Virus record (IMG/VR): IMGVR_UViG_3300035703_002363
Location: 1-16,233 of that record
Direction: 5' to 3' (one strand)
DNA length: 16,233 nt
From: a virus
Part shown: positions 1-16,233 of the stretch, in pieces
How the letters are laid out: each line of letters opens with the position of its first letter
Numbering within the stretch: the stretch's first letter is position 1
Translations under genes and position numbers: made by a program
Notes under the pieces: model-generated
Seen by the model: the letters and a program-made list of their open reading frames with translations, nothing else
Databases searched by the model: none
What the model was told of the DNA's origin: nothing

Positions 1-127
1 GGGGGACCACGGGGGCGGCGGCCTGGGTGGGGGTGCCGGTTGCGGCGAGGTCGGCGACGGGCGCCGGGTCGCTGTTGCCGGTGACCTCGGCGCGCTGGGC
101 GGCGAGGTGGGCCTGGAGCTGCTCGTC
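1..127. repeat. Terminal overlap copy 1 (identical to 16107-16233); most likely an assembly circularisation overlap
   Basis: Base-by-base comparison shows 1-127 equals 16107-16233 exactly. The match stops at 16106. 127 is a common maximal assembler k-mer. Confidence 0.9.
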
Positions 128-784
128 GTGCTGCTCCTTGGTGATGGTGCCCGCGCGGAGAGCCGCGGCGAGCTGTGCGGGGTTCATGTGGTGCTCCTTT
201 TCAGGGTCGGTGATGATGGTCGCGGAGATGCTGCTGACTCCCGCTTCGGCGACGGCAGGGACCGCGCAGAGGGAGAGCTCGTACCAGTCCGCGCGAAGAA
301 CGTGAAGGTTCCAGTCCTCGTCGAACTCGTAGTCGTAGATGGAGAAGCCGACGGAGACGCCGTCGCGCAGCTTCTGCTCGTATTCGGTTTTGACTCGCTC
401 GGCCTCGGAGTCGGCGATCTCGAAGCTGGCCGACTGCACGGCGTCGTCGACCTCGATGCAGTAGCCGACGGGCTGCGCGTGGTCGTGGTCGCGCAGCATC
501 TTGACCGCCGAGAGGGGCGTGCGGGGCACGAGGGCACCGGCGTGGATGATGGCGCCGTGCGACTCGATGAGCTCGTCGTAGCGGGTGATCGTGTCGCACT
601 TGACGGTGAGTTTTCCGTTGCCGTCGACGGCGAGGGTCACGGGGCGCGCGGCGGTGCGCAGGCTGATCTCGGGAAGCTTGGTGAGAGTGCCGGCGGCGAG
701 TTCCGTGCAGGCCTGCACGTAGCGGGGGCCGGTGAGGAGCCCGGCGCGGTTGAGGGCGTCGAGTTGGCGGCGGTTGGGTTTCAC
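1..784 (-). CDS. 5' part of a 594-aa prohead protease (HK97/S78 family)-major capsid fusion ORF, join(15106..16106,1..784) on the circle
   Basis: Absent from the ORF track because it runs off the window edge. Manual minus-strand translation from GTG 784-782 (GTGA overlap with portal stop) is open down to position 1: VKPNRRQLDALNRAG...SAVKMLRDHDHAQPVGYCIEV...KLRDGVSVGFSIYDYEF...ADWYELSLCAVPA... It shows the His motif (HD..PVG) and the GxSxGF Ser motif of HK97-type proteases. The frame (position mod 3 = 1) matches the GTG at 10, which equals 16116. Confidence 0.85.
   Translation of the reverse strand, partial: MKPNRRQLDALNRAGLLTGPRYVQACTELAAGTLTKLPEISLRTAARPVTLAVDGNGKLTVKCDTITRYDELIESHGAIIHAGALVPRTPLSAVKMLRDHDHAQPVGYCIEVDDAVQSASFEIADSEAERVKTEYEQKLRDGVSVGFSIYDYEFDEDWNLHVLRADWYELSLCAVPAVAEAGVSSISATIITDPEKEHHMNPAQLAAALRAGTITKEQHDEQLQAHLAAQRAEVTGNSDPAPVADLAATGTPTQAAAPVVP
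185..199 (-). promoter_or_regulatory. Internal ribosome-binding site plus in-frame ATG at the protease/capsid boundary
   Basis: Minus strand reads GAAAAGGAGCACCACATG. AAGGAG lies at 199->194, a 6-nt spacer follows, and ATG lies at 187->185 in the fusion ORF frame. Translation then reads MNPAQLAAALRAGTITKEQHDEQLQ... (395 aa to the stop at 15106). Confidence 0.6.
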
Positions 785-1905
785 GGGGTCTCCTGCGTGG
801 TCGGGGTCCAGCCCTCTTGAGCTGCGATCCAGTCGGTCGTGATGTAGCCGCCCTCGAGGCCGAGGTTGTAGGTCTCGAAGCGGGTCTTTTGGTCGGGGCG
901 GGTGAGGGAGTCGATGTCGATCTCGACCTGCCATCCGCGCGGGGTCACGTCTGACATCGAGAGGCGGTCTTTCACTGCCTGGTGGAACGGCGCGAGGCTG
1001 AGGTCGATGAGTTCCCAGTTGCGGAGGCTGCGGTTGTCATAGGTGAGCGTCGCGCCGTCGACGGCCGTGGATGCCGCCCATGCCGGGAGGGACATGTGGC
1101 GCACGAGTTCGAGGCTGAGAGCTCGGCGCCCCTCGATGAGCAGCTGCGGGGTGTGCTGGCCGTGGGCGATGGCCTTGAGGTTCTTGGAGGTGTAGGCGAC
1201 GCCGGTCTGCTTGCGTCGGGTGGTCCATCGCTCCATGAGCGCGTCGATCTGTGTGTCGTCGAGGTCGGGGCCTTCGTTGTGGAGCTCGAAGGCGGGGACG
1301 GGGTTGTCTTCGGCTAGGGCTGCGGCGAGTTCGATCGCCATGCCTCGGCGGATGGTCTTGTTCGCACGGTCGAGCAGACCTTCGCCGTGGGGTGAGTCGA
1401 ACCGAATGACATCGCGCGGTGCGATGGGCGTGGTGCCGTCGTGGGTGATGGTCGTGCCGTCGGCGCTGGGTCGGGCGTTGCCGGGCGAGACGCGCAGGAC
1501 CTTGGATGGCCAGTCGTAAGAGTCGCGTTCGATGACGCGCCACCAAGCGACGCCGTAGAAGAGCAGGTCGTCGTAGAGCCAGGTGTAGGTGATGCTGCGG
1601 GGGATGCCGGGCTCGGGTTGCTGGAAGAGTGCGGGCTGGCGGGGCGCTCGGGCGCCGTTGATCTTCAGGTAGTGCTCGAGTCGACCGCAGGTGCCGGCGA
1701 TGACCTGGCGGCCGGTGGCGACGGTGCCGATGGTGAGGGCGTTGCGGCGACTGACGGGGATGTAGTCGCCGAGTTCGTAGAGTTCGGCAAGAGTGACGAC
1801 GGAGAGGATGTCGTCGGCGCGCCAGGGTGAGGCGACGCCGAGGCGCTGTGTGCGGCGCGGCGTGAGGCCGATGCGGTTGGCGAGGCGAGCGAGAGGTCCG
1901 GGCAC
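781..1905 (-). CDS. Portal protein (HK97-family-like)
   Basis: 374-aa ORF between TerL and the protease-capsid gene. Portal-like sequence: ...TYTWLYDDLLFYGVAWWRVIERD... The only in-frame start after an upstream TGA is GTG at 1905. Confidence 0.85.
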   Translation of the reverse strand: MPGPLARLANRIGLTPRRTQRLGVASPWRADDILSVVTLAELYELGDYIPVSRRNALTIGTVATGRQVIAGTCGRLEHYLKINGARAPRQPALFQQPEPGIPRSITYTWLYDDLLFYGVAWWRVIERDSYDWPSKVLRVSPGNARPSADGTTITHDGTTPIAPRDVIRFDSPHGEGLLDRANKTIRRGMAIELAAALAEDNPVPAFELHNEGPDLDDTQIDALMERWTTRRKQTGVAYTSKNLKAIAHGQHTPQLLIEGRRALSLELVRHMSLPAWAASTAVDGATLTYDNRSLRNWELIDLSLAPFHQAVKDRLSMSDVTPRGWQVEIDIDSLTRPDQKTRFETYNLGLEGGYITTDWIAAQEGWTPTTQETP

Positions 1906-1972
1906 GTGGCCAGGGTGAACGATCTGTCAAGAACTCGCACATTGCACGGCGTGTCGCGGCAACTTTGCGCAC

Positions 1973-3457
1973 TTAGTAGACGCGGGCGGTTTCTGCCGGC
2001 GCTCCTCGGTGGTCGTAGAGCCAGATGCCGACGGCTGAGCCGATCGGGAAGATGATGGGGCCGGTCGATTCTGATCGTGAGAATCGAGTGAGGTCGCCGA
2101 CGCGCTTGAGCACGAGGTGGGCGAGGCCGAGGGTCATGGTGCGGGATCCATCGAGCTTGAGTTGGCGATCGCGGAACATGGTCACCCAGCCTTCGCAGCT
2201 GGTGCCGAAGTCTCGCGCGCCGACGGTGGTGATGGCTTCGTCGCCGAGGGTGCGGCGTAGTTGATCGGTGAGTCGTCGTGTTGCGCCGCCGTCATCGCCG
2301 CCGACGACGATGGGCGCGTGCTTGTGCACGAGGTCGACGATGTAGTCATGCATCCACATCGAGCCGGGCGCGACGTGCAGCACGCGGGTCACGGGTGCGT
2401 CGTCGATGTCGCGCCAGGTGGCAAACACGCCGCCGAGCTCATTGTCGGGCGCGATCTCGTAGGTGAGCGCGATCTCGGAGAGGCTCGGGATGCTCTCGGG
2501 GTCGCGGGTGTTGGCGGTGACCTCTTCGCTGCTGAACAGGGGGTCGGATGCTTCGAGCCAGACGTTGCAGAATGCACGCAGCCACGTCGCGCGCGAGACC
2601 TGCCCGCTGATCTCCATGAGCGCGTCGAGCGACATCGTGTGCCCGACTGCAGGGTGGAATGCGGCGATCGCGCGGCGGTCGTATGGGTCTGCGCCGTCGG
2701 GCAGTGCGGCCTCGAAGTAGGCGAGGCGCTGGTTGCTGCCGGGCTTGAGCACCGACTCGCGGCCACGCTCGACCCACTTGCGCATGAACGTCGAGCGGGC
2801 ATCGCCCGCGGTGGAGAGCAGCCATATCTGTCGCTGCCCTGCGAGGGTCACCTGAGCGGGAATGATGGCGCCCTCGAGTATCGCGTCGCCGAGGGCTTCG
2901 TCGAGTTCCCAGATTTCATCCATGCCGACGAGGGGCGGGGTCTCGCCGTGGAGGGCTGCGACGACGGGGGCGAATAGCTTGAGTGCTGAGCCGTTCGGGA
3001 ACAGGATGCCCTCGTCGCCTGCCGAGTATCGGTAGCGGAGCATGCTGTCGAGGGGCGAGTCCTGCACGAGTGAGACGAGGTCGCCGAATCGTGAGCGTGC
3101 GTCTTTGCCGGTTTGCGCCGTGTAGAACGTCTTGATGGCGGGCATCGTGATGCATCGGTCGAGCTGCACGGGCCCGTAGAGCGTGGTCTTGCCGGATTGG
3201 CGGGGAACGGTGACGAACACGATCTCGTAGACGAGCTCGCCGAACGAGCCGCGCTCGAGCGCGGTATCCCAGACTTGCCGCTGCCAGGGCATGCCGGGCT
3301 TGCCGATTCCGGCCGCGATCTTGGCCACTCTGCCGCCGTCGGTTCGGGCGCCGGCGTTGCGAGGGGTGGCGTATTTGAAGCCGCTCCACTGGATGCACTC
3401 GTCGTCGTGCCCGGGTTCGAGCACGCAGTCGTCGAGTGCGCAGCGTGGCACGGTCAC
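1973..3457 (-). CDS. terL: Terminase large subunit
   Basis: Trimmed from track ORF 1973..3988 to GTG 3457, which overlaps the upstream stop as GTGA (494 aa). Walker A motif VTVPRQSGKTT is present, followed by the ...LVGMDEIWE... Walker B region and a C-terminal nuclease-like half. The upstream extension is Arg/Pro-rich out-of-frame-type sequence overlapping TerS and HNH. Confidence 0.93.
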   Translation of the reverse strand: MTVPRCALDDCVLEPGHDDECIQWSGFKYATPRNAGARTDGGRVAKIAAGIGKPGMPWQRQVWDTALERGSFGELVYEIVFVTVPRQSGKTTLYGPVQLDRCITMPAIKTFYTAQTGKDARSRFGDLVSLVQDSPLDSMLRYRYSAGDEGILFPNGSALKLFAPVVAALHGETPPLVGMDEIWELDEALGDAILEGAIIPAQVTLAGQRQIWLLSTAGDARSTFMRKWVERGRESVLKPGSNQRLAYFEAALPDGADPYDRRAIAAFHPAVGHTMSLDALMEISGQVSRATWLRAFCNVWLEASDPLFSSEEVTANTRDPESIPSLSEIALTYEIAPDNELGGVFATWRDIDDAPVTRVLHVAPGSMWMHDYIVDLVHKHAPIVVGGDDGGATRRLTDQLRRTLGDEAITTVGARDFGTSCEGWVTMFRDRQLKLDGSRTMTLGLAHLVLKRVGDLTRFSRSESTGPIIFPIGSAVGIWLYDHRGAPAETARVY

Positions 3458-3777
3458 GCGCTGTCTTTCAGGCTGTCGACGAACGCATCGAACCGATCCA
3501 TGATGTCTTTGTCGGCGGGTGCGGGTAGTGCCATGAGGGTCTCGCGCAGCTGGGCGGCTGCCATGGCGGCGGCGGATGCTCGGCCGCGGCTGTTGCCGTG
3601 GGCGACGGCGTCGGCGAGCTCGAGCGCGAGTTGGGCCAGGCCAGCGTGCCGAGGTTGGAGCAGCTTGTCGTCGTGCAGGGCTTGGATCGTGGTGATGACG
3701 GCGTCGCGGAGGGCGCTTTGACGTGAGCCGAGTTCTAGGCCGTCGAGCATCGGCTGGTTCGGGTTGTCGGTCGTCAT
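3454..3777 (-). CDS. Putative terminase small subunit
   Basis: 107-aa helical protein immediately upstream of TerL and translationally coupled to it. Called from position and composition only. Confidence 0.5.
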   Translation of the reverse strand: MTTDNPNQPMLDGLELGSRQSALRDAVITTIQALHDDKLLQPRHAGLAQLALELADAVAHGNSRGRASAAAMAAAQLRETLMALPAPADKDIMDRFDAFVDSLKDSA

Positions 3778-3860
3778 CGTTTTCTCGTCTTGGTCGTTTT
3801 CGGGGTTTTTCTGGGCGGTGTGGGGAGAAATGGAAGGGGCTGCGCGCGGGTTTCCAGGGG
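3778..3860. other. Non-coding gap between HNH and TerS; candidate cos/packaging-site region
   Basis: The largest non-coding gap in the late region. It is locally T-tract rich (tttt 3780-3783, tttt 3797-3800, ttttt 3806-3810). In HNH-dependent cos phages the HNH gene sits at one genome end and terS at the other. Confidence 0.25.
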
Positions 3861-4163
3861 CTAGCGGCTAAAGAACGCGAGGCCGTCCTCCACGATGTGG
3901 TTGGCATCGGTGGCGTCGCGATTGCCTCGTGCGCTGTTGCATGAGCGGTGTGAGGGTCCGAGGTTGACGAGGTCGTAGACCGCGCCACCCTTGGAGCGGG
4001 GGATGATGTGGTCGGCGCTGTTCGACCCGGGCAGACCGCAGAGCCAGCACGTCGTGCCGTACTCGGCGAGTGTCATGCGCACGTACTGCTGAGCCTTCCG
4101 GCCACCCCACTTCTCTTCGGGTGCTTCGGGGTCTGCGTACCTGCCCGGGCCTCGGCGGATCAC
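3861..4163 (-). CDS. HNH endonuclease (terminase-associated type)
   Basis: 100 aa with CWLCG...ADHIIPRSKGG...NLGPSHRSCNSARGN (CxxC, DH, N and HxxCN elements of the HNH fold). GTG start overlaps the upstream stop as GTGA. Confidence 0.9.
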   Translation of the reverse strand: MIRRGPGRYADPEAPEEKWGGRKAQQYVRMTLAEYGTTCWLCGLPGSNSADHIIPRSKGGAVYDLVNLGPSHRSCNSARGNRDATDANHIVEDGLAFFSR

Positions 4164-4339
4164 AGTGCGTCGCCGCTTGCCCGTCGCCAGGTCGTGCCGC
4201 TCTCAGCGTCGAGGTGCTGGTCGTCATGCCCTGCGTGGAGTTGACAGGTGACGGTGCGACCTCGACGGAACGCGGTGGCGCCGCATGCTGTGAATGGCTT
4301 GGGCTTGGGCGGTGCCTTCGGCTTCGGCTTGGTGGTCAT
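4160..4339 (-). CDS. Small hypothetical protein (59 aa), Lys/Pro-rich N-terminus plus C-X12-C-X2-H-X2-H zinc-finger-like motif
   Basis: Below the track size cutoff. Manual translation: MTTKPKPKAPPKPKPFTACGATAFRRGRTVTCQLHAGHDDQHLDAESGTTWRRASGDAL. ATGA coupling at 4336-4339, an AAGGAAGGA SD upstream, and high GC3. Confidence 0.55.
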   Translation of the reverse strand: MTTKPKPKAPPKPKPFTACGATAFRRGRTVTCQLHAGHDDQHLDAESGTTWRRASGDAL

Positions 4340-4659
4340 GCTGGTGTTCCTTCCTTGGTTGAGCGGCGTGAGGCTCGGCGCTCGTGCACGATGCGATCGG
4401 CATGCTCGGCCATGGCTTCACGTTGCTCGGGGTGGGCGGCGAGGTAGTTCAGGGAGTTGGCCTTGACGATGACGAGGAACGCGATCGCCTGTTCGCCTGG
4501 GCTCATGCGCAGGTAGTCGCCGAGAATGTTGATGGCCTCGGTGTCGTATCGGCCTGGCTCGAGCGTTTCTTCCATCAGCTGCGCGGCGACGGCTCGTTGC
4601 AGGATCTTCTCTGTGCGGCTCTCGACCTCGGCGAGGTGCTGCGTGTGGTCGATGGTCAT
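4336..4659 (-). CDS. Hypothetical protein (107 aa)
   Basis: C-terminal part of track ORF 4336..4794, starting at MTIDHTQHLAEVESR... ATGA overlap with the upstream stop at 4656-4659. Confidence 0.6.
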   Translation of the reverse strand: MTIDHTQHLAEVESRTEKILQRAVAAQLMEETLEPGRYDTEAINILGDYLRMSPGEQAIAFLVIVKANSLNYLAAHPEQREAMAEHADRIVHERRASRRSTKEGTPA

Positions 4660-4886
4660 GCGGCTCGCACCTCGATGAGGCTTGTGATGCCAGCACGGGG
4701 CCAGGTCACGCCGCCGCCCTGGTGGTTGCCGACGTGCATGACGGGCAGGGTGCAGGTGACTCGGACGCTGGCCGTGATGCTGGTGATGCCGCATCGTGCT
4801 TTGCCGCGGCGGGCGTGTGGGGTGTCGAGTTCGGGCAGGTCGTCGCGGCTGTTGACGGCGGCGCGTGCGCGTTCGAGGTGGCTCAT
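4656..4886 (-). CDS. Hypothetical protein (76 aa)
   Basis: C-terminal part of track ORF 4656..5066, starting at MSHLERARAAVNSRDDLPEL... ATGA overlap at 4883-4886. Confidence 0.55.
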   Translation of the reverse strand: MSHLERARAAVNSRDDLPELDTPHARRGKARCGITSITASVRVTCTLPVMHVGNHQGGGVTWPRAGITSLIEVRAA

Positions 4887-5179
4887 GCTGCGGTGCCTTC
4901 CTGCTGGAGTTCCGGGGTGCGGATGAGGGTTGCTGTCACGAGTGCGTCGATCGCGGCGTGGTAGATCGCGTCGGCTGCGTCGATGGTGGGTTGGACCGCT
5001 GACATGGCGAGCGAGGTGGCCGGAATCTTGGCGAGGTTGCCGACGCTGATCGCGGCGGCTGCGCATTGCTGCGCGGCTCGTGTGAGGGCGGCGCGTCGTT
5101 CGGCCGGGTGGCGGCTGGCCTCGTCGATGAGTTCGGATGCGATGAAGCGCAGGCGGCTCGCGGGTGCGGTGATGTTCAT
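4883..5179 (-). CDS. Hypothetical protein (98 aa)
   Basis: Track ORF with ATGA coupling at both ends. Ala-rich helical sequence. Confidence 0.6.
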   Translation of the reverse strand: MNITAPASRLRFIASELIDEASRHPAERRAALTRAAQQCAAAAISVGNLAKIPATSLAMSAVQPTIDAADAIYHAAIDALVTATLIRTPELQQEGTAA

Positions 5180-5511
5180 GCGGCTGCCTCCTGGCTGCTC
5201 TTGTTGGTGATCTGGTGCCAGTGGTTGGCGACGGTCGAGCGAGAGACGCCGATGGTCACTGCGATCTCGACTTGGCTGTAGCCGAGTTCGGCGAGCTGGC
5301 GTGCGTAGCCCATGCGTTCGTCAGTCATGCGAACCCACGTGCGTCGTCGCTCGGGTGCAGTCGGCGGGGTGCTGGGGCGCTTGACGGACTCGATGGCTTT
5401 GGCTGCGATCAAGCCGCCGACATCCGTGCCCTGCTCTCGTGCGGGGCGCTCCCAGGCTCGGTAGACCGATGCGGGAATGCTCACCCTGACGGTGATCGTG
5501 TCCTCGGTCAT
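5176..5511 (-). CDS. DNA-binding protein, RHH-like N-terminus plus HTH C-terminus (possible Cro/early regulator)
   Basis: N-terminus ITVRVSIPASVYRAWERPAREQG resembles a ribbon-helix-helix strand and helix. C-terminus YARQLAELGYSQVEIAVTIGVSRSTVANHW is a clear helix-turn-helix. Confidence 0.65.
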   Translation of the reverse strand: MTEDTITVRVSIPASVYRAWERPAREQGTDVGGLIAAKAIESVKRPSTPPTAPERRRTWVRMTDERMGYARQLAELGYSQVEIAVTIGVSRSTVANHWHQITNKSSQEAAA

Positions 5512-6074
5512 GCGCTCACCCGCTCTCGAAGGTCAGCGCCGCAGTTCAGACAGCATCCGGTGTCGAGTCGCACGTGCTCGCCCGTGGGCGAGATACGTGC
5601 CGAGACGGGGCACTCGCGCGCGCGCGCGAGATGGTGAGGTTCTTTGTTAAGTCTTGTGGTTGGTTTAGTGGATGGTTCGGGTGTCGCTACCGACACCCCA
5701 CTCGCGTCGGATTCGACACCGGGTGTCGGATTCGACACCCCTCCTTCGAACAAGTTGAGACGAGCTGCAGAACGGTGACGGTGGTTCTTTGACCGGTCGC
5801 ACGTGGAGGGGCATTCGAGAATGACCCGATAGAGGTTTGGGCGGTGGCTGTCGGCGATTGAGCTGGGCCCGCCGCCTTGTAGCACGACCTCGATCTCGCG
5901 CAGTCGCACGAGAGTCTCGATGGCCTTCTGCACGTTGCGACGGGTGACGTTGGCGTATCGGGCAAGCGTGTCGATCGAAGGCCAAGCGCCACCGTCGCCG
6001 TCGTGGTTGGCGATGCCGAGCAACACGACCTTGGCGGTAGCAGTGGCTCGACTGTGGTGGAGGCACACGGTCAT
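5508..6074 (-). CDS. Winged-HTH DNA-binding protein, putative replication initiator (lambda O-like logic)
   Basis: Trimmed to ATG 6074 (188 aa). N-terminus AKVVLLGIANHDGDGGAWPSIDTLARYANVTRRNVQKAIETLVRLREIEVV...RPNLYRV is a wHTH of the type seen in phage/plasmid initiator-like proteins. A palindrome array and an AT-rich patch lie in the linker region. The C-terminus is Cys-rich (CPVS...CCLNC). Confidence 0.6.
   Translation of the reverse strand: MTVCLHHSRATATAKVVLLGIANHDGDGGAWPSIDTLARYANVTRRNVQKAIETLVRLREIEVVLQGGGPSSIADSHRPNLYRVILECPSTCDRSKNHRHRSAARLNLFEGGVSNPTPGVESDASGVSVATPEPSTKPTTRLNKEPHHLARARECPVSARISPTGEHVRLDTGCCLNCGADLRERVSA
5679..5740. repeat. Cluster of three related palindromic sites (iteron-like) inside the initiator-like gene
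   Basis: 5679-5698 reads GGGTGTCGctacCGACACCC. 5721-5740 reads GGGTGTCGgattCGACACCC. A degenerate copy lies at 5702-5720 (tcgcGTCGgattCGACACC). A 15-nt direct repeat gtcggattcgacacc occurs at 5706-5720 and 5725-5739. Confidence 0.85.
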
Positions 6075-6085
6075 GGATTCGACGC

Positions 6086-6202
6086 TCACGGCACGATCTG
6101 CCAGTTGATGAGGGCGAGCATCCAGAACACGGCGGCGATTGAGAACGCAGCCACGGTGAGAGTGCTGATGACGAGCGCCGGGTGAGGGGTCTTCTGCTTC
6201 AT
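6086..6202 (-). CDS. Small membrane peptide (38 aa, one TM helix), first ORF of the leftward operon
   Basis: Not in the track. Manual translation: MKQKTPHPALVISTLTVAAFSIAAVFWMLALINWQIVP. High GC3. The ATG sits 7 nt downstream of a candidate -10, so the transcript looks leaderless. Confidence 0.5.
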   Translation of the reverse strand: MKQKTPHPALVISTLTVAAFSIAAVFWMLALINWQIVP

Positions 6203-6290
6203 GCGGCCATGATGGCACATTTCACCACTCTGACAAATGCAGATTTGGCGGCGTGTTGTGCAGAGGGTGGCAATCTGCCAAACTTCTCAC
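6203..6290. promoter_or_regulatory. Divergent early/immunity control region with candidate promoters and a palindromic operator
   Basis: Non-coding and locally lower in GC. Leftward: TTGTCA (rc of 6231-6236), 16 nt, then CATCAT (rc of 6209-6214), 6 nt before ATG 6202. Rightward: TTGTGC 6256-6261, 18 nt, then AAACTT 6280-6285, 5 nt before ATG 6291. Palindrome TGGCAatcTGCCA at 6268-6280. Confidence 0.3.
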
Positions 6291-6611
6291 ATGACGATGA
6301 CAATGCTCCAATTCGAGACGCATGACTACGTTCGAAAGGCCGTCGAGGTCGCTGGGCTTAGTGCCGGCGACTTCGCGAGTGCGTTGGGGGTCTCTCGAAA
6401 CACCGTTAGCCGATGGCTGAACGGGCGAGCTCGCCCCAGTACCGCGCAGATGATCGCCATCTCGGTCGTGACGGGAGTGTCACTAGAATGGCTGACTCAA
6501 GGTGTGGCGCGCCCGGAGGGACTCGAACCCCCAACCTTCTGTTCTGTAGCCGACGACGACCTCGCGCTCGAGCTCGCCTTCCTCACCATCGTCGAGCCGG
6601 TGATGGCATGA
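6291..6611 (+). CDS. Cro/C1 (XRE)-type HTH repressor, full-length 'viral' form (106 aa; alternative start 6237)
   Basis: HTH motif LSAGDFASALGVSRNTVSRWLNGRARPSTAQMIAISVVTGVSLEWL. Transcribed divergently from the early operon. The 3' end contains the tRNA-like attP core, which encodes ...VARPEGLEPPTFCS... Confidence 0.8.
   Translation: MTMTMLQFETHDYVRKAVEVAGLSAGDFASALGVSRNTVSRWLNGRARPSTAQMIAISVVTGVSLEWLTQGVARPEGLEPPTFCSVADDDLALELAFLTIVEPVMA
6505..6549 (-). other. 3' fragment of a tRNA-Arg(ACG)-like gene; candidate attP common core
   Basis: Minus strand reads CTACAGA-ACAGA-AGGTT-GGGGG-TTCGAGT-CCCTC-CGGGCGC-G-CCA. That order is anticodon-loop-like, stem, variable loop, T arm with canonical TTCGAGT loop, acceptor 3' strand, discriminator and CCA. 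No matching 5' acceptor strand (GCGCCCG) lies upstream, so it is a fragment and not a gene. Confidence 0.75.
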
Positions 6612-6853
6612 CCTACATTCTGCCCGGCTTCCCCGACGAGAACGCTGACGGATGCCCCGACAACCTCATGCCCGACCCTGCCTGGCCGGACGGCGTGGGC
6701 TGGCCCTGCATCGAGATCGTCGTCACTCCTGGACCGCCGACCATCACCGTCGACTCACTGGCCGACACTGGGGCGGTTGAGGTCACTGGGGCGCTCCTGG
6801 GCGCGATCGTACTGATCTGGGCCGGGCTAGTGCTGCGAGGTCGACGCGCATGA
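6608..6853 (+). CDS. Small protein (81 aa) with C-terminal LAxTG-like motif, hydrophobic helix and basic tail
   Basis: Trimmed from track ORF 6413..6853 to ATG 6608 (ATGA overlap with repressor stop). Sequence: MTYILPGFPDENADGCPDN...TVDSLADTGAVEVTGALLGAIVLIWAGLVLRGRRA. Confidence 0.6.
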   Translation: MTYILPGFPDENADGCPDNLMPDPAWPDGVGWPCIEIVVTPGPPTITVDSLADTGAVEVTGALLGAIVLIWAGLVLRGRRA

Positions 6854-7332
6854 GCGTGCCGGCCGCTTTGCTCGATGCCGTGCCACGGCCTGGTCACCCG
6901 CACTATCGCCGCTCCGGTCACCAGCAAGCCCTGACCGACATCGCGCGCGACATTCGCGCACGAGTGCCGATCGCGGGCGAGCTCGCCGTCGATGCTGAGT
7001 GCCGCGCACGCCGCGAACTCGTCGACGAGGCGCTCGCCTTGCTCGGAGTGCAACTTGAGGCTAGAGAGTGGTGGACTCTTGTTTGCGAGACGCGGCCAGA
7101 CGATCGAATGCCGGTTTTCGCAGGCATTTGGGCCCACAGCATGGAAGAGGCCGTGATCGAAACCGTGCTCTGGCGCTCCGAGTTCGATGGCCGGCACATC
7201 GCCACCATCGCGCCCGACGAGAACTGCGAGCACCACGAGCAGCTTTCGGCAGCTCGACGCAAGTTCGAGCTCGCTGACGAGCGCAACACGCGACGCGTCG
7301 CCGAGATTGAGGCGAGCGTGACCCTGTGGTGA
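6850..7332 (+). CDS. Hypothetical protein (160 aa)
   Basis: Track ORF with ATGA coupling at 6850-6853. Good GC3 and acidic/helical composition. The antisense 257-aa ORF is judged a shadow. Confidence 0.6.
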   Translation: MSVPAALLDAVPRPGHPHYRRSGHQQALTDIARDIRARVPIAGELAVDAECRARRELVDEALALLGVQLEAREWWTLVCETRPDDRMPVFAGIWAHSMEEAVIETVLWRSEFDGRHIATIAPDENCEHHEQLSAARRKFELADERNTRRVAEIEASVTLW

Positions 7333-7372
7333 GCATCCGCAGTTCACACGATTCCGAGAGGAGCACGGATTG

Positions 7373-7540
7373 ATGAGCATTGACATCGTGGAAGTCGCTG
7401 GCTACCAGTGGCAGTGCAGCGACTGCAATGACTCGGGCCACATCGAAGTCAGCCCCGAGTTCTCCCAAGAGAGCGCACAGGAGCACCGCTGTTCGCCCAC
7501 TTCCAGCACCACGACGACAGGAGAGCAGCCCAATGGATGA
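7373..7540 (+). CDS. Small hypothetical protein (55 aa) with CxxC...H...C pattern
   Basis: Not in the track. GAGAGGAG SD lies 8 nt upstream. Sequence: MSIDIVEVAGYQWQCSDCNDSGHIEVSPEFSQESAQEHRCSPTSSTTTTGEQPNG. Confidence 0.5.
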   Translation: MSIDIVEVAGYQWQCSDCNDSGHIEVSPEFSQESAQEHRCSPTSSTTTTGEQPNG

Positions 7541-7811
7541 CGACCCGTACCGCCCGTACCCCTGGTGGACTCGCGTGTGGCCGCTGAGCCGCATCTACTT
7601 CGCGGGCTGGCAGCGAGGCGAGGAGGCCGGGATTGCGCGCGGTCGGTTCCAGATGGGCGACCCAGCATCGCCCGATTTCAGCAAAGAACCGGAGCCCGGA
7701 ACGTTAGACGCTCGGGGCTCCGGTGAGATGTCTTTGCGAGACCCCGTAAGCATACCAAATACTCCTGATTCCGGGGCGGTGTCGGGGGTTCCCGATACAA
7801 ACTCACCATGA
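7533..7811 (+). CDS. Hypothetical protein (92 aa), Trp-rich N-terminus and disordered C-terminus (possible RDF, unproven)
   Basis: Trimmed from track ORF 7380..7811 to ATG 7533 (AGGAGAG SD, ATGGATGA overlap). Sequence begins MDDDPYRPYPWWTRVWPLSRIYFAGWQRGEE... It ends in an ATGA overlap with the int start. Confidence 0.5.
   Translation: MDDDPYRPYPWWTRVWPLSRIYFAGWQRGEEAGIARGRFQMGDPASPDFSKEPEPGTLDARGSGEMSLRDPVSIPNTPDSGAVSGVPDTNSP
7688..7724 (+). promoter_or_regulatory. 10-bp perfect inverted repeat (stem-loop or protein-binding site) about 85 nt upstream of int
   Basis: ACCGGAGCCC at 7688-7697, a 17-nt spacer, then GGGCTCCGGT at 7715-7724. A lower-GC stretch follows with a weak sigma70-like pair: TTGCGA 7734-7739, 18 nt, then AATACT. 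Confidence 0.4.
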
Positions 7812-8620
7812 CTCTTTCGCAATCATGGTGCCAGGCGATCGACGAATACCTCGAGCACGCCACCGCTGCGGGAGCACCGCAGACAACCCGCTACACACGA
7901 GAGCAACACCTGCAACACCTAGCCCGACGCGTCGAGGCCGAACCGTGGGCGCTCACCGGGGCTGAACTCGTCACCTATGCCGCTGCGCAGACTTGGGCCG
8001 CTGAGACTCGACGCGGGCGCCGCTCGACCTTCCTGTCGTTCTACCGGTGGGCGATCGCAACAGGCCGCACCGACACCAACCCTGCGCTCTCCCTGCCCCG
8101 CGTGAAGGCCGCAATGGGCAAGGCTCGACCCACGCCCGAACTCGTCTACCGTGAGGCCGTCGCCGCGGGTGACGTGCGCGCCCGCCTCATCCTGAGACTC
8201 GCCGCCGAGGTCGGGCTGCGCCGTTCCGAGATCGCGCGCATCCACTCACGAGACCTCATGCAAGACCTCGTCGGCTGGTCGCTCGTCGTGCACGGCAAGG
8301 GAGACCGTGAGCGCATCGTGCCGCTCCCTGACGGCCTCGCACGAGTGCTGCGCGCGCTCCCCTCGGGGTTCGCGTTCCCGGGCGACGACGGCGGGCACCT
8401 GTCCCCGCGCTGGGTGGGCAAGATCGCCACCCGACTACTGCCCGGCGACTTCACCCTCCACACGTTGCGCCACCGGTTCGCGACGCTCGCCTATCAAGTC
8501 GACCGTGACGTGTTCGTGGTGCAAGAGCTGCTCGGCCATTCGAGCCCGGCGACGACGAGGCGCTACGTGCAAACCCAGCACGAGCACCTACGCCGCACGG
8601 TGGTCGCTGTCGCCGACTAG
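7808..8620 (+). CDS. int: Tyrosine integrase (short XerC/D-like; no obvious arm-binding N-terminal domain)
   Basis: 270 aa. SAM-like core-binding N-terminus (...FLSFYRWAIATGRTDTNPA). Catalytic set present: R (GLRRSEI), K (VHGKGDRER), HxxR (HTLRHRFAT), H (LLGHSS) and Y (TTRRYV). Confidence 0.93.
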   Translation: MTLSQSWCQAIDEYLEHATAAGAPQTTRYTREQHLQHLARRVEAEPWALTGAELVTYAAAQTWAAETRRGRRSTFLSFYRWAIATGRTDTNPALSLPRVKAAMGKARPTPELVYREAVAAGDVRARLILRLAAEVGLRRSEIARIHSRDLMQDLVGWSLVVHGKGDRERIVPLPDGLARVLRALPSGFAFPGDDGGHLSPRWVGKIATRLLPGDFTLHTLRHRFATLAYQVDRDVFVVQELLGHSSPATTRRYVQTQHEHLRRTVVAVAD

Positions 8621-8859
8621 CGGTTGTCGGGTACGAGGTAGCCGAGCACGAAAGCCACGACGAGAGCGAACGACGTCTCGACTGTCACGGGCACGTCGAT
8701 CGCGAAACCGCTCTCTACGCCCCACACGGCGATCGTTGCGACGGCTGCGCCGAGCGCGCCCGCTGTCACCTTCGGGCTCACGTCGTTCCACTCGCGGCGA
8801 GGGTCGTAGACGAGCTCGACGGTGGGCGTGAACTCTGCTTCTTGCTGGGTGTCACTCAT
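8617..8859 (-). CDS. Membrane protein with two TM helices (80 aa), holin-like second lysis component
   Basis: Trimmed to ATG 8859 (8-nt overlap ATGAGTGA with the upstream gene). Sequence: MSDTQQEAEF...VTAGALGAAVATIAVWGV...TSFALVVAFVLGYLVPDNR. Last gene of the lysis cassette. Confidence 0.55.
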   Translation of the reverse strand: MSDTQQEAEFTPTVELVYDPRREWNDVSPKVTAGALGAAVATIAVWGVESGFAIDVPVTVETSFALVVAFVLGYLVPDNR

Positions 8860-9094
8860 GAGTGTGCTCCTGTTCTGGTTCGATTCCGAGGTGTCGCTCG
8901 ATTCGGTCGAATCGGCGGTGGTACTTCTCATCTCGCGCGTCGAGCTCGTCGCGCAGGTTCGTCTTGTGCGAGTTCTTCACCTGGTAAACGGCCTCTTTTG
9001 CGTGGCGGCGCGTCGACAGCAAGATGGGCACGAGACCGAGGGTGAGCAGGGCTGTGGCGCTGTTGATGAGGCCGACGATGACTGTTTCGCTCAT
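8852..9094 (-). CDS. Holin-like protein (80 aa; one N-terminal TM helix, highly charged C-terminus)
   Basis: Sequence MSETVIVGLINSATALLTLGLVPILLSTRRH followed by a charged tail. ATGA-coupled to the endolysin stop. Confidence 0.6.
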   Translation of the reverse strand: MSETVIVGLINSATALLTLGLVPILLSTRRHAKEAVYQVKNSHKTNLRDELDARDEKYHRRFDRIERHLGIEPEQEHTHE

Positions 9095-9816
9095 GCCTTC
9101 ATCCGCTGCGCGATCTCGTCGGCAACCTGCTCGGCTGAGGCGCCACCCGAACCGCCGTTCACAGCAAGAGCCAGGTGCGCGTCGCGGATGCTCTTGAACA
9201 CCTCAGGACCGACCGGGCGGTGTGGTCCGTACAGGCGCGACATTTGCACGGCAAACTCGACCTCGCTGGCAGGTGTCGGAATGCGACGCTCATAGAGCTG
9301 CACCGCACCTGACGGCCAGACCGTCATGCATACTGTGCCGTTCACTGCCTCGCCCTTGGCGTTGCGGGTTGATGTGTCTAGAAAGTTCTGCGGTTGCATT
9401 TCTTCCTCCTCGTCGGGTGTTGCCGAAATGTTGAACGCCAAAGTGAAATAGGGGGCTGGGTTCACCCGCGCGCCGTCGACCCACACCTCAACGTGAAGGT
9501 GCACGCCCTCGACCTGTGCGCCGGTGGCGCCCATTTCGCCGAGATAGGTTCGACCGAGCTCGACGGTGTCGCCGGTCTTGACGGCGATCGTGTTGAAGTG
9601 TGTGAGTCGTAGCGTGGCGGTCGGCGTGAAGATGCGGATGAAGTTGCCCACGAGGTCGTGCCATCCGACCATGACGGTGCCCGATGCCGGCGCGTACACC
9701 TTGCGCGACTCGGCGGCGTTCGCCTTGAGCCATCCGTAATCGACCCCATGGTGAAAGCCTCGCTTGCGTTGCCCCCACGGTGAGGTGATCGGCCCGGGGA
9801 CTGGGTGCATGAACAT
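9091..9816 (-). CDS. Endolysin, M23 (LytM-type) metallopeptidase with uncharacterised C-terminal domain
   Basis: HxxxD motif (GFHHGVDYG) and HxH motif (GVHLHVEVW) with typical M23 spacing. Sits after the tail genes and before the holin-like genes. Confidence 0.88.
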   Translation of the reverse strand: MFMHPVPGPITSPWGQRKRGFHHGVDYGWLKANAAESRKVYAPASGTVMVGWHDLVGNFIRIFTPTATLRLTHFNTIAVKTGDTVELGRTYLGEMGATGAQVEGVHLHVEVWVDGARVNPAPYFTLAFNISATPDEEEEMQPQNFLDTSTRNAKGEAVNGTVCMTVWPSGAVQLYERRIPTPASEVEFAVQMSRLYGPHRPVGPEVFKSIRDAHLALAVNGGSGGASAEQVADEIAQRMKA

Positions 9817-9837
9817 TAGCGAGGCTCGCTCTCAGGG

Positions 9838-10464
9838 CTACGCATAGCGGGTTGCCTTGACTGTGTAGGTGCCCGTCACGGTGGTCACTCCTGAGCAGGT
9901 GAATCGGATGCCGTCGAAAGACGCTGCCGAACGGTGACGCAAAGCCGAGAACACGGCGCCCGAGTTCGCTGTTGCGTCGAACGCGCGGCGGCGCACTTCG
10001 GCGATCGTGCGACGGGTTGCGTTGAGGCCGAAAAGTGTGAGGGTGATGTGTCGATCGGTTCGGGAGCCCGGCTGATCTAGTCCCCAGTTCGCCGCCGCCA
10101 ACGCAGAAGTGGCTACCGCGGTGGAGACTGAGCCAACGAGGTCTTGCCGGTCGTAGTTGCTCGTCGCGTTGGGCGTCGTGCCGCTGAGCAGCTGCGCGGT
10201 GATGGTGTTTGCTGTGCTTGCGGTCGGCAAGTCGAGCACGATCTCGTACTCGTCAAACCCAGTCAGACCTTCGAGCGAGATGATGTTCTGCGCTGTGATC
10301 GTGCCCGAAGCCAGAGCGACCATGGCGTGGTTAGCCTTCGCGCCGATGACCTCGGAGATCTCTTCTAGACCGAGGTTCATGTATTCGGGCCAGTCGAGGC
10401 CTACGGCGGTCGCTTCGGTGTAGCGACGAATCCCGTTAGCGTCGGGGCCGCTAAGTTCTCCCAT
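9838..10464 (-). CDS. Minor tail protein / candidate receptor-binding protein (208 aa)
   Basis: Last tail-module ORF, with an AGGAG SD. Ser/Thr/Ala-rich beta-type composition. Called from position only. Confidence 0.55.
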   Translation of the reverse strand: MGELSGPDANGIRRYTEATAVGLDWPEYMNLGLEEISEVIGAKANHAMVALASGTITAQNIISLEGLTGFDEYEIVLDLPTASTANTITAQLLSGTTPNATSNYDRQDLVGSVSTAVATSALAAANWGLDQPGSRTDRHITLTLFGLNATRRTIAEVRRRAFDATANSGAVFSALRHRSAASFDGIRFTCSGVTTVTGTYTVKATRYA

Positions 10465-10477
10465 GGTTGTGTGCTCC

Positions 10478-11656
10478 TTATGCCCAGATATTCATTTCGA
10501 ACCGGCCTGACAGTTGCCAGGTGATCGCGTCGATGATGGTGGTCACTGCGTCGTCGCCGGGCAGTGTGTAAGTGATCGACGACCACGGCATGACCGAGTA
10601 GTCGGGTGGTGTCGTGAGTCGCACGGGCGAGAGGTCGAGCCCTGCGCGTGTGGCGTAGCTGGCTGCTGGCGTGGGAAAGCCCAGCGGCGGCGGGGCGTCG
10701 GTGGGGGGCCATCCGATGAGCGGCGCTGGAACGTCGATGAGGCGGGCGACGACGTTGGTGAACGATATGCCGCCGATGGATGTGGGCCACACGGGGCGCG
10801 CGTTCGGGTCGGTCTGGCTGCCACTCCACCGCACGAGGGTCTTTGTAGCGAGATCGCGAGCGTATTCGTAGTCGATGAGGTTCACGCCATCTTCGACGAT
10901 GATGTCGCCGGGGGTCGGCGGGTTATCTTCGGCGTGAATGAGTGCCCAGTCACCGCGCGAGTAAAGGCGCTGCGCGACGCTGACGAGAATGCCAACGACC
11001 GCGGCCCAGACGTTGGCCAACGGTTCGACATTGAGCGGCGCGCCGACTCCTGCGCGGCGGGCTTGGGTAATGAGTACGGGCTCGTCGAGGTCTGGGTATC
11101 CCCCGGCGACGTGGTGCCCGACTGTGGTGGCTGAGAAGAATGCGAAGCGCACGAGGGCCTGTGTGTGGTCGCCCGGGATTGCGCGCGCGATCGCGTCATT
11201 GTTGCCGTCGAGGTCTGGATTGAGCGCGTCGAGATAGAGTGCTTCGGCTGATGCGACATCGAGGGTCCATGAGTCGCGCCGTTCGCGCACTTTCGTGACC
11301 ATGAGCTCGAGGCGGCGGCCGGTGCCCGCTCGTGGTGGGTCGTTCCATGACCCTGCCGCGATCAGGGCGGGCATGTCGGCGGGCAAGATGCCGTTGAAGT
11401 CCTCGGTGAGTGTGCCGGTTTCGTCGCCGAACAGTGTGGTGAGGTCTCGGCTTATTGAGATGTCACCGAACCGCTGGGTGAGTTCCACGATGACTCGTTT
11501 GCCGGGGCCCATGGCCACCGATGGCGGGGCGATCTCGATGCGCCCTTGGATGTGTGGAGTCCATGCGCGGTCGGCGGTGATCGTGGAGCCGTCGAGCACG
11601 GTGAGGCGGTCACCGGTAGATGTGTAGACGCGGGCCTCGGGGTCGTTGACGGGCAT
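10478..11656 (-). CDS. Minor tail protein (392 aa; Tal/baseplate position)
   Basis: Trimmed from track ORF 10478..12223 to ATG 11656 (TAATG overlap). Sequence begins MPVNDPEARVYTSTGDRLTVLDG... It is the second ORF after the tape measure. Confidence 0.6.
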   Translation of the reverse strand: MPVNDPEARVYTSTGDRLTVLDGSTITADRAWTPHIQGRIEIAPPSVAMGPGKRVIVELTQRFGDISISRDLTTLFGDETGTLTEDFNGILPADMPALIAAGSWNDPPRAGTGRRLELMVTKVRERRDSWTLDVASAEALYLDALNPDLDGNNDAIARAIPGDHTQALVRFAFFSATTVGHHVAGGYPDLDEPVLITQARRAGVGAPLNVEPLANVWAAVVGILVSVAQRLYSRGDWALIHAEDNPPTPGDIIVEDGVNLIDYEYARDLATKTLVRWSGSQTDPNARPVWPTSIGGISFTNVVARLIDVPAPLIGWPPTDAPPPLGFPTPAASYATRAGLDLSPVRLTTPPDYSVMPWSSITYTLPGDDAVTTIIDAITWQLSGRFEMNIWA

Positions 11657-12018
11657 TAGCTGACCTCCCTGAATGGGATGCGCACGACCCAGTAGCGGCG
11701 GTCGCGTTGCAGCTCGACGTCGAGCGAACCGCCGAATACGGCAAAGGTGAACTCGAGCGTCGTGCGGGCGGGGTAGGTGATGGCGAACAGTTCTGGACCG
11801 CCGAGCATGGCTCGGGCGGCTTCGGCTGCAGCCTCGGTGCTGTAGAGCGCGGCTAGGGTGCCCTGGCGGCTCTTGGCTGCGCTCAGGTTCACCCATAGGT
11901 CTGTGGCGCCGGGAATGTCGTGCACGATGGTGCCGAGTTCTTGGCTTGTGCGCCACGGCTGCAAGAGAACGGGGTTGGTGACTCCGCTCGTGATAACGCC
12001 GGTGATTGCGATGGTCAC
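11656..12018 (-). CDS. Small tail protein (120 aa) in the distal-tail-protein position
   Basis: GTG start with GTGA overlap on the tape-measure stop. Called from position only. Confidence 0.5.
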   Translation of the reverse strand: MTIAITGVITSGVTNPVLLQPWRTSQELGTIVHDIPGATDLWVNLSAAKSRQGTLAALYSTEAAAEAARAMLGGPELFAITYPARTTLEFTFAVFGGSLDVELQRDRRYWVVRIPFREVS

Positions 12019-13630: not shown

Positions 13631-13636
13631 CGGGCG

Positions 13637-14302: not shown

Positions 14303-14313
14303 GGTGCTTTCTC

Positions 14314-15029: not shown

Positions 15030-15055
15030 GATGTCCTCCTCGTGGTGTGTGGGGT

Positions 15056-15090
15056 GCTCGCCCCGGCCGGTGCCGTCGGCCGGGGCGAGC
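15056..15090 (-). terminator. Strong GC-rich hairpin just downstream of the capsid gene (attenuator or stabiliser; no U-tract)
   Basis: GCTCGCCCCGGCCG-gtgccgt-CGGCCGGGGCGAGC gives a perfect 14-bp stem and a 7-nt loop. It lies 16 nt after the capsid stop (15106) and before the next gene's SD. Confidence 0.5.
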
Positions 15091-15105
15091 GGTGAGAGGT
15101 GGCTG

Positions 15106-16233
15106 CTAGGTGGGCAGGACCTCGTCGTAGGTGCGCTTGACGATCAGACGGGGGTCGTGGTCGTCGAGACGCAGGTACGAGAACACGCCGATGTCGACGC
15201 CGCCCTTGGGCACGTTGTCCGCGTAGACCTGGAACGGCGCGCGCTCTTTGACCATGAGGGCCCGGTTGTCGAAGGCGACGACCTGGTTGGCGGCGAGCGT
15301 GGAGTCGTGCTCGAGCACGGTGCCGCCGATGGTGCCGGTCTCCTCAGAGAAGTCCATGCCCACGTTGGCGGTGCGCAGCCACAGCGGCAGGGTGTCGCTG
15401 TTGAGGTCTTCGAAGGCGTCCCACATCGTGGTGCCGAGGAAGAACCGGTTGGCGCGGCCTCCGTCGATGCTGTTGACATCGCGGCGCAGCTGCTTGAGCA
15501 GCGCGAGCACGCTACCCGTGCCGACGGTCTCGGTGCCGCCGACGGTGGCGCCGGGGGCCTGAGCGGCGGCGAGCACGCGGGTTCGGATGCCGGCGTTCGA
15601 CTTCTGGCGGTAGCTCTTGGCGACAGCCTCGAGGAACGATGCGGTGAACTCGGGGTCGGCGAAGTCGATAAACGCGCGGTCGACATCCCATCCGGCCGCG
15701 ATGCGGAAGGCCGTGAAGGTGTCGGAGACGGTCGAGATGTCGTTCGAGGGCACCTCGGTCTTGTTGCCGCTGTACTCGTCGACCTCGGGTGCTTCGCCCT
15801 CGGTCCAGCGCCACCCCTTGCCCTTGAGGCTCGTGAGGGGGCCGGGGGTGCCGATAGCGTCGATCCAGGGGCGGCGCGCGTCCTCGGCTTCGAACAGTTT
15901 GCCGAGCCACTCGGTGCGCAGGAATGCCTCGCCCGCGTCGTCGGCGGGGATCACGTCGCTGATCGCGAGCATGACGCGCTGCGGCTGTCCAGTCTGCGCG
16001 GCGGCGGCGATGTGCTGCGCTGCGGTCTGGAGCGAGAAGCCGCGGTCGCGGGTCTCCAGTTGGGGGCGGTGCGGCGCGACGGGCTCGGGTCCGGCCGCGA
16101 CGTTGAGGGGGACCACGGGGGCGGCGGCCTGGGTGGGGGTGCCGGTTGCGGCGAGGTCGGCGACGGGCGCCGGGTCGCTGTTGCCGGTGACCTCGGCGCG
16201 CTGGGCGGCGAGGTGGGCCTGGAGCTGCTCGTC
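15106..16233 (-). CDS. Major capsid protein (HK97-fold type), 3' part of the protease-capsid fusion ORF
   Basis: Track ORF 15106..16116 remains open upstream to the window end. It continues in frame into 1..784 through the 127-bp overlap. Capsid-like sequence: ...KGKGWRWTEGEAPEVDEYSGNKTEVPSN...RIAAGWDVDRAFIDF...LGTTMWDAFEDL... Confidence 0.88.
   Translation of the reverse strand, partial: DEQLQAHLAAQRAEVTGNSDPAPVADLAATGTPTQAAAPVVPLNVAAGPEPVAPHRPQLETRDRGFSLQTAAQHIAAAAQTGQPQRVMLAISDVIPADDAGEAFLRTEWLGKLFEAEDARRPWIDAIGTPGPLTSLKGKGWRWTEGEAPEVDEYSGNKTEVPSNDISTVSDTFTAFRIAAGWDVDRAFIDFADPEFTASFLEAVAKSYRQKSNAGIRTRVLAAAQAPGATVGGTETVGTGSVLALLKQLRRDVNSIDGGRANRFFLGTTMWDAFEDLNSDTLPLWLRTANVGMDFSEETGTIGGTVLEHDSTLAANQVVAFDNRALMVKERAPFQVYADNVPKGGVDIGVFSYLRLDDHDPRLIVKRTYDEVLPT
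16107..16233. repeat. Terminal overlap copy 2 (identical to 1-127)
   Basis: Same as copy 1. Confidence 0.9.

Follow-up and report, generated by a model that had tools for sequence, protein, structure and literature searches.

The stretch of viral DNA analysed here (IMG/VR record IMGVR_UViG_3300035703_002363, positions 1 to 16,233; hereafter the window) carries a gene for an initiator-like protein. Within the linker-coding part of that gene lies a compact module of three palindromic iterons, an AT-rich patch and a GC palindrome. We interpret the module as the phage origin of theta-type replication, embedded in the gene of its own initiator in the manner of phage lambda, and place the probability of this interpretation, which draws on sequence computation and on analogy, at roughly 0.72. 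What has been computed is the layout of the module, its positional conservation, the selection on its nucleotides and the co-variation of its sites with a recognition helix. A lambda-like origin bound by the encoded protein had been put forward in a short earlier annotation of the same DNA (the original prediction); that proposal gains support from matches to PHROG and Pfam families, from the order of the elements, from conservation, from co-variation and from frozen codons.

Anatomy of the in-gene module

The module occupies the linker-coding part of the gene, which is read from 6074 to 5508, and its elements succeed one another in the gene direction as iterons 1 to 3, the AT patch and the (CG)n palindrome.

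5508..6074, minus strand: initiator-like gene; 188 residues, with a winged helix at the N-terminus, then a disordered linker, then a tail rich in Cys and His
5721..5740: iteron 1, the first in the gene direction; perfect palindrome GGGTGTCG-GATT-CGACACCC, with compensatory arm changes at the equivalent site in relatives
5704..5719: iteron 2; degenerate palindrome GCGTCG-GATT-CGACAC, with one arm mismatch
5679..5698: iteron 3; perfect palindrome GGGTGTCG-CTAC-CGACACCC, adjoining the AT patch
5631..5678: AT-rich patch, candidate DNA-unwinding element; sense strand A-rich and G-poor
5613..5630: GC palindrome, (CG)n; perfect, 18 bp, CTCGCGCGCGCGCGCGAG, directly beyond the AT patch

Direct reading and matching of the sequence recovered the two perfect 20-bp palindromes with identical 8-bp arms that the original prediction had placed at 5679-5698 and 5721-5740, and the degenerate third palindrome was found at 5704-5719. 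The iteron centres (5688.5, 5711.5 and 5730.5) give the claimed spacings of 23 and 19 bp, and the outer pair is separated by 42 bp. The gene boundaries (5508..6074) and the quoted peptide were likewise correct; the (CG)n palindrome at 5613-5630 had not been mentioned.

The GC content of 5641-5675, put at about 40%, is exactly 40%, compared with 65.8% for the genome overall. The description of this region as the lowest-GC patch holds in part. At the 35-bp scale it is one of the two lowest, with a minimum of 37.1% GC at 5635-5669 that is tied with 13079-13113, but at the 100-bp scale the divergent promoter region (6200-6300) has a lower GC content than the patch. The GC content at third codon positions is 0.25 in the AT patch and 0.73 in the rest of the initiator gene.

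Chance occurrence was assessed with 100 first-order Markov simulations of the genome, and two same-arm palindromes (8-bp arms) within 100 nt arose in 0/100 of them. Perfect palindromes with an arm of at least 8 and a gap of at most 8 number eight genome-wide, against an expectation of 3.9 ± 2.1, and three of the eight lie within 5613-5740. Paired iteron sites are present at this one locus only in the genome, and are absent from the divergent promoter region.

The encoded initiator-like protein

The encoded protein matches the Pfam family HTH_36 (PF13730) over residues 12-58 (E-value of 2.3e-10; 40.6 bits against a cut-off of 25) and PHROG 8540, 'replication initiation O-like', over residues 1-155 (E-value of 2.8e-32). 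It has 945 homologues at E ≤ 1e-10. An AlphaFold2 model, computed from an alignment of 57 homologues, comprises helices at residues 12-23, 34-41 and 45-57 and wing strands at residues 61-66 and 80-84, which together make up a winged helix. Model confidence drops past residue 105, and the predicted local distance difference test score (pLDDT) stays under 50 for the greater part of residues 111-151 (111-114, 116-127 and 137-151). This low-confidence stretch coincides with the codons that hold the iterons and the AT patch, which encode residues 112-148, after the winged helix and in the disordered linker. Two further features of the gene may be relevant to function.

5904..5945, minus strand: recognition-helix codons, residues 44-57; T44 is the helix N-cap, with the predicted helix at residues 45-57
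5541..5612, minus strand: C-terminal Cys/His cluster C...H...CxxCG, residues 155-178; pLDDT of approximately 84

The C-terminal cluster follows the consensus C-x7-H-x5-G-x-C-xx-C-G, in which C155 and C175 are nearly invariant across the 57 homologues. The cluster has no family match, and it is a candidate, by conjecture, for the module that recruits the host replisome. A second conserved cluster, CPxxCDRxxxH, is located after the wing (5778-5813, minus strand; C88, C92 and H98). The two Cys/His clusters flanking the linker (C88, C92, H98 and C155, C175, C178) could form one or two zinc sites that loop the linker out.

A sequence-profile search of the Protein Data Bank returned nothing significant (best E-value of 0.084, with a GntR regulator), and a Foldseek search of the same archive returned generic winged-helix matches only, none at E ≤ 1e-3. 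N-terminal domains of staphylococcal RepA and of DnaD are among the top fold matches (4pql, 4pt7 and 2v79, the last from DnaD), with E-values of 8e-3 to 3e-2. Fold E-values as a whole run from 5e-3 to 3e-2, reflect generic winged-helix similarity and are not significant.

Conservation among relatives

The comparison covered approximately 190 loci with homologues, of which 26 were drawn from genomes, 80 from viral contigs (many of 15-17.5 kb) and 80 from metagenome contigs, together with two sets of five loci, one consisting of Arthrobacter cluster AN phages and a Curtobacterium phage and the other of close relatives by protein identity. Conservation counts use 128 distinct full-length homologous genes. 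The module is found at the matching gene position in most of approximately 130 relatives, including the Arthrobacter cluster AN phages. At least one perfect palindrome with an arm of at least 7 is present in the linker of 100/128 genes, compared with 26/128 for an N-terminal stretch of equal length, and palindrome density is ten times higher in the linker. Lineage half-sites reach a 40-fold higher density in the linker than over the rest of the loci. Palindrome-centre spacings in the relatives peak at 19, 23-24 and 42 bp. In 78/128 genes, the lowest-GC stretch of 12 codons starts between −6 and 30 nt from the last palindrome (median of 9 nt), and this stretch is A-rich and G-poor on the sense strand, as in the window and in the AT-rich region of lambda.

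Three of the 28 genes that lack a perfect palindrome were inspected (L029, L011 and L122), and all three have two to four repeats with a spacing of 19-25 or 42 bp. The iterons of L011 (6344-6405) are asymmetric, with arms GGTGGCG and CGTCACC, and L122 (3342-3425) has four direct 18-bp repeats at spacings of 19, 23 and 24 bp. Repetition and spacing are thus more conserved than dyad symmetry.

Constraint on the nucleotide sequence

In the relative L001, whose protein is 83% identical to that of the window, the arms GGGTGTCG/CGACACCC are replaced by GGGTGGCG/CGCCACCC in 5/5 intact half-sites (GGTGTCG to GGTGGCG). The change preserves the dyad symmetry and converts the peptide GVSVATP to GVAVAPP. 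The 48-nt AT patch has 100% nucleotide identity between the window and this relative, and its flanks have diverged. The patch is also retained in L196, even though iteron specificity changes there.

A codon test was confined to codons that specify an identical amino acid in all five closest relatives. Identical codons make up 10/11 in the iterons and 11/11 in the AT patch, compared with 21/73 in the winged helix and 8/23 in the C-terminus; that is, 21/22 for the iterons and AT patch together versus 29/96 elsewhere (Fisher p = 1.1e-8). This comparison of palindrome conservation with synonymous drift in relatives, which the original prediction had suggested, points to a constraint at the nucleic-acid level, and it favours selection that acts on the DNA of the module rather than on the peptide.

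Co-variation of the sites with the recognition helix

The half-site of each gene varies with residues at the start of the predicted recognition helix. Lysine at position 50 occurs with GGTGTC in 31/32 genes, arginine with GGTGAC (29), GGTGGC (8) or GGTGTC (9), and tyrosine with GGTGCA. At base 5 of the half-site, N47 is found mostly with T or G, and S47 or T47 with A. In the closest clade, base 5 is G with H44, and T with T44 or N44.

Shared ancestry was controlled for with 44 non-overlapping closest (sister) pairs. Residues 47 and 50 differ in 21 of the 23 pairs with differing site types, and are the same in 15 of the 21 pairs with the same type (Fisher p = 2.8e-5). When approximately 110 N-terminal columns were scanned, the best three were K50 (p = 4e-6), T44 (p = 1e-4) and N47 (p = 1e-3), which are spaced i, i+3 and i+6 at the start of the helix at residues 45-57. 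These three positions are candidate specificity residues, and the protein that binds the iterons is probably the encoded winged-helix protein; co-variation supports binding and does not prove it.

Proposed mechanism

From these results we infer binding, melting, helicase recruitment and initiation at the module. Transcription through the module could be supplied by one promoter-like site.

6209..6236, minus strand: promoter-like site of the leftward early operon; TTGTCA-16-CATCAT with TG, one found against 0.1 expected

This promoter-like site would drive transcription through the open reading frame (ORF) 6220..6086 and the initiator gene, and hence across the origin module. Dimers of the 188-residue winged-helix protein would bind the three 16-20-bp palindromic iterons (5679-5740), which are approximately two helical turns apart. 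The nucleoprotein complex, aided by early-promoter transcription through the module, would then melt the AT patch (5631-5678), a strand-asymmetric region of approximately 40 bp, with the (CG)n palindrome at 5613-5630 bounding the melted patch. Since helicase, helicase loader, primase and polymerase are all missing from the phage gene set, the host replisome would have to be recruited, plausibly via the conserved Cys/His C-terminal tail. A loader like lambda P was sought in the three ORFs downstream of the initiator gene (5511..5176, 5179..4883 and 4650..4336), none of which has a replication-family match; one has weak helix-turn-helix matches only, and the other two have no match. The absence of any other replication gene from the family counts in favour of the origin interpretation.

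A broader proposition is put forward tentatively and, taken jointly, falls a little short of even odds. In a large clade whose members are the smallest of the tailed phages (15-18 kb; hosts in the Microbacteriaceae and Micrococcaceae), the 188-residue protein and its in-gene origin of approximately 130 bp would be the whole of the replication machinery that the phage supplies, with loader-free recruitment of the host replisome via the Cys/His module, and the clade would comprise orthogonal initiator-origin pairs with a base-5 code at residues 44, 47 and 50. In the putative code, T44/K50 would read T, H44 would read G, S47 or T47 with R50 would read A, and Y50 would read C. If true, this would amount to a readable winged-helix recognition code, and to a system of replicon specificity ('incompatibility type') undergoing diversification among phages that circulate together.

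Alternative explanations

Several other roles for the sites were weighed against initiation, and some of them involve neighbouring genes.

3454-3777: gene in the small-terminase position; HNH, large-terminase and structural genes are also located downstream of the iterons
6297-6611, plus strand: cI-like repressor gene, from library matches
7808-8620, plus strand: tyrosine integrase gene, from library matches

The closest competitor, which we regard as unlikely, accepts that the encoded winged-helix protein binds the sites and takes them to be only operators or a roadblock, serving autoregulation or the timing of the downstream packaging and structural genes. The co-variation of site and helix supports binding and is silent on its effect, and the sites do lie within the early leftward unit, upstream of the small-terminase-position, HNH, large-terminase and structural genes. 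However, an operator or roadblock leaves unexplained both the codon-frozen, strand-asymmetric AT patch with its GC palindrome and the match to the order and spacing of the lambda origin, and it would deprive these genomes of any candidate for an origin or an initiator.

The palindromes might instead form RNA hairpins in the early messenger RNA, acting in translation pausing, RNase processing or attenuation rather than as DNA sites. Compensatory arm changes fit an RNA stem as well as a DNA dyad, the module region folds as RNA with z = −2.5, and sense-strand mismatches compatible with G:U pairing outnumber those of the antisense kind by 30 to 11. This explanation does not predict co-variation with three residues of a recognition helix. 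Moreover, the half-sites alternate in orientation, so that 7-bp palindromes with a gap of only 1 nt, impossible as hairpins, also arise between neighbouring arms, and the repeats of L122 are direct rather than inverted, at a spacing of 19-24 bp. An Rfam search of 5300-6900 returned no match, and shared ancestry as well as codon choice are confounders of the G:U excess. Hairpins are improbable as the principal function, and would more readily be a minor or additional one.

The original prediction had offered operators or 'stoperators' of the phage repressor as its alternative. The cI-like repressor gene (6297-6611) lies approximately 560 bp away, and the GTCG/CGAC cores may bear a loose resemblance to the operator of phage BPs, a likeness put forward in the original prediction. 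Nevertheless, the recognition helix of the repressor, SRNTVSRW, is identical in the window and in L192, L193 and L194, although their iterons differ (GGTGTCG versus GGTGGCG), and this contradicts the repressor as the binder. The sites form a single locus, with no paired site in the divergent promoter region and no genome-wide dispersal of the kind seen for stoperators, and the module is present in cluster AN phages, which have no integrase and are not known as stable lysogens. This alternative has accordingly lost nearly all of its plausibility.

Equally implausible is a role of the repeats in packaging, as a pac/cos recognition site, or in recombination, as a site of the attP type. Repeated protein-binding sites near packaging genes are typical of pac, and the terminase genes are situated 1.7-3.7 kb downstream. 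The deposited linear record of phage Decurro contradicts a packaging site: it ends at 1 and 15524, and the iterons, at approximately 14.41-14.49 kb, are approximately 1 kb from the right end. A recombination site is contradicted by the retention of the module in the integrase-less cluster AN phages and by the probable attP core of the window, which lies elsewhere, at 6503-6549. Finally, the repeats specify a recurring peptide, GVSxxTP, in a linker that is disordered and of low complexity, but their origin as a mere by-product of that peptide, with no nucleic-acid function, is scarcely credible, being contradicted by the compensatory changes, in which the peptide shifts from GVSVATP to GVAVAPP as the dyad symmetry stays, by the frozen synonymous sites and by an arrangement that none of the 100 simulations produced.

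Several observations weigh against an origin of replication at the module. Binding, unwinding and initiation there are predictions, and the recruitment step is conjectural because neither a helicase loader nor any other partner is encoded. No DnaA box with at most one mismatch occurs in the whole genome, and nothing there points to an origin that depends on DnaA. Gene orientation is a confounder of GC skew, which is uninformative on the origin and was not used. Only 31/128 relatives have a (CG)n or GC palindrome in the 100 nt that follow the AT patch. The profile of the initiator aligns with lambda O with an hhalign probability of only 0.3%. Lastly, arm mismatches on the sense strand of the relatives are more often G:T than A:C (30 versus 11, in 91 distinct sites), and this excess, with the RNA fold score, leaves room for an added or alternative role at the RNA level.

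Comparison with known systems

The window module appears analogous to the lambda O/ori system. In the lambda record, gene O contains, in this order, four iterons (each an inverted repeat of 18 bp, with 20, 24 and 23 bp between successive starts), an A-rich stretch of approximately 40 bp and the inverted repeat TCAGAGAATTC-TGGC-GAATCCTCTGA. Dimers of lambda O bind the ori repeats and the adjoining AT-rich region opens; two iterons and the AT-rich region are enough for unwinding (PMC5043065, PMC7466680). Lambda ori and the proposed origin of the window share an in-gene position, in the linker between an N-terminal DNA-binding domain and a C-terminal part, and inverted-repeat iterons of 18-20 bp, which bind dimers in lambda, spaced approximately two turns apart (20, 24 and 23 bp in lambda; 19 and 23 bp in the window). 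In both, the iterons give way to an AT-rich region of approximately 40 bp with an A-rich sense strand, beyond which lies an inverted repeat; an early promoter (a promoter-like site in the window) directs transcription across the origin, and extra iterons lengthen the linker.

The differences from lambda are also substantial. The lambda initiator belongs to the Phage_rep_O family and the window protein to HTH_36; lambda and the other lambdoid phages, Stx phages among them, have four to six iterons, with TCCCTC arms, whereas the window has three with GC-rich GGGTGTCG arms; and the P helicase loader of lambda has no counterpart in the window. Lambda O has 299 residues, whereas the window protein has 188 and a Cys/His C-terminal cluster, and the host of the window phage is a putative high-GC actinobacterium. 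The initiator has no match to Pfam Phage_rep_O (PF04492) even at E ≤ 10, a family that lambda O itself matches at 5.7e-36. Since the initiator has no detectable sequence homology to lambda O, the parallel is architectural only.

RepA_N initiators (RepA of pSK41/pTZ2162 and of PLE, with a DnaD-like N-terminal domain) also have a winged-helix N-terminal domain, the fold predicted for the window protein, and their origins often lie within repA. Their iterons, unlike those of the window, converge on a poly-A tract. In this family, semi-palindromic iterons are the targets of the N-terminal winged helix, and the C-terminal domain, specific to the host, recruits by a chemistry described as unknown (PMC7145576). 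The window protein has no match to Pfam RepA_N (PF06970), and its match to DnaD_N is under threshold (E-value of 0.023).

The gp23 proteins of Arthrobacter cluster AN phages (Decurrovirus) are true homologues of the initiator, with 45-50% identity, a matching gene position and siphophage genomes of 15 kb. Their genes contain in-gene palindromes GGTGTCG-N4-CGACACC, together with TACCCCCGGGGGGGTA twice, followed by an AT patch. Gene 23 of Decurro (L027) has one GGTGTCG-N4-CGACACC and two TACCCCCGGGGGGGTA copies 25 bp apart at approximately 14413-14485. Kels (L029) has only the TACCCCCGGGGGGGTA-type palindrome, which may represent a second site class or a different specificity. Unlike the window phage, which has an integrase and a cI-like repressor, cluster AN phages have no integrase and are not known as stable lysogens.

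With the stoperators of cluster A mycobacteriophages and the BPs operator, the putative sites of the window share the character of short, GC-rich protein-binding sites in an actinophage. Cluster A stoperators are asymmetric, dispersed over the genome and bound by the repressor. By contrast, the window sites are palindromes grouped at a single locus, and their sequence follows changes in the initiator and not in the repressor.

The initiator protein is already labelled 'O-like' in PHROGs and RefSeq. The papers on cluster AN identified no replication functions and left the start of replication unclear (PMC5679792, PMC5513430). In the searchable literature no origin is described for this clade, and the origin goes unmentioned in two later publications, about small actinophages and prophages of Curtobacterium. 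The principle is the known lambda solution, with an initiator of no detectable sequence homology to O; a candidate origin for the clade is the part not found in that literature. Cluster AN phages and their metagenomic and prophage relatives are among the smallest tailed double-stranded DNA phages. Because the module names a concrete initiator and an origin of approximately 130 bp, the question of how replication starts becomes directly testable. The module also lends itself to vector construction as a minimal replicon in Microbacterium, Arthrobacter and Curtobacterium, and the co-variation of three residues with the half-site provides a data set for winged-helix DNA recognition and for the diversification of replicon specificity. 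The most interesting extension is the apparent recognition code with orthogonal initiator-origin pairs among very close relatives.

Genome context and additional observations

The ends of the window are identical over 127 nt (1-127 and 16107-16233), which marks the window as a complete genome, 16,106 bp long, that was assembled as a circle. The only record of the exact initiator protein is on one metagenome contig of 16,233 bp. The genome is that of a small temperate siphophage, and its minus strand carries the structural, lysis and packaging genes. A near-identity search of 4500-7500 against 50,697 phage records returned a single 43-bp match and no close sequenced phage. The nearest relatives come from genomes of Microbacterium, other Microbacteriaceae or Micrococcaceae, and these nearest relatives suggest that the host is a high-GC actinobacterium. 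No complete transfer RNA (tRNA) was found with ARAGORN, and no intrinsic terminator was found in 5300-6500.

Within the AT patch, CCATCCACT was considered as a DnaA-like core; it is not conserved beyond the closest clade, and no claim is made for it. Between the early promoter-like site and the initiator gene lies a 44-residue ORF (6086-6220, minus strand), hydrophobic by eye, and genes of 38-44 residues are likewise located upstream of the initiator homologue in L194, L195 and L196.

Gene 21 of the Curtobacterium phage Barebow (L028; 15968-16738), annotated as a 'hypothetical protein', contains palindromic linker repeats, TTCCGTCCACGGAA, at 16418-16472. The repeats comprise three CCGTCCACGG cores, 13-14 bp apart, that encode FPSTEFPSTESPST, and the protein also has a C-terminal Cys/His cluster. 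Although this is a different protein, it looks to have the same in-gene-iteron layout.

Inside the cI-like repressor gene, at 6503-6549 (plus strand), lies GTGGCGCGCCCGGAGGGACTCGAACCCCCAACCTTCTGTTCTGTAGCC, whose complementary strand reads as the 3' half of a tRNA, with T-arm, acceptor stem and CCA. The motif encoded by this segment, ARPEGLEPPTFCSVAD, is for the most part unchanged among the repressors of the relatives. The segment looks like a probable attP core. An attP within the repressor gene is the layout of integration-dependent immunity of the BPs/Brujita type.

Just downstream of a capsid-like gene (minus strand, 16116..15106) is the longest perfect hairpin of the genome (15056-15090; 14-bp arms, GCTCGCCCCGGCCG-GTGCCGT-CGGCCGGGGCGAGC), which may act as a terminator or a processing site.

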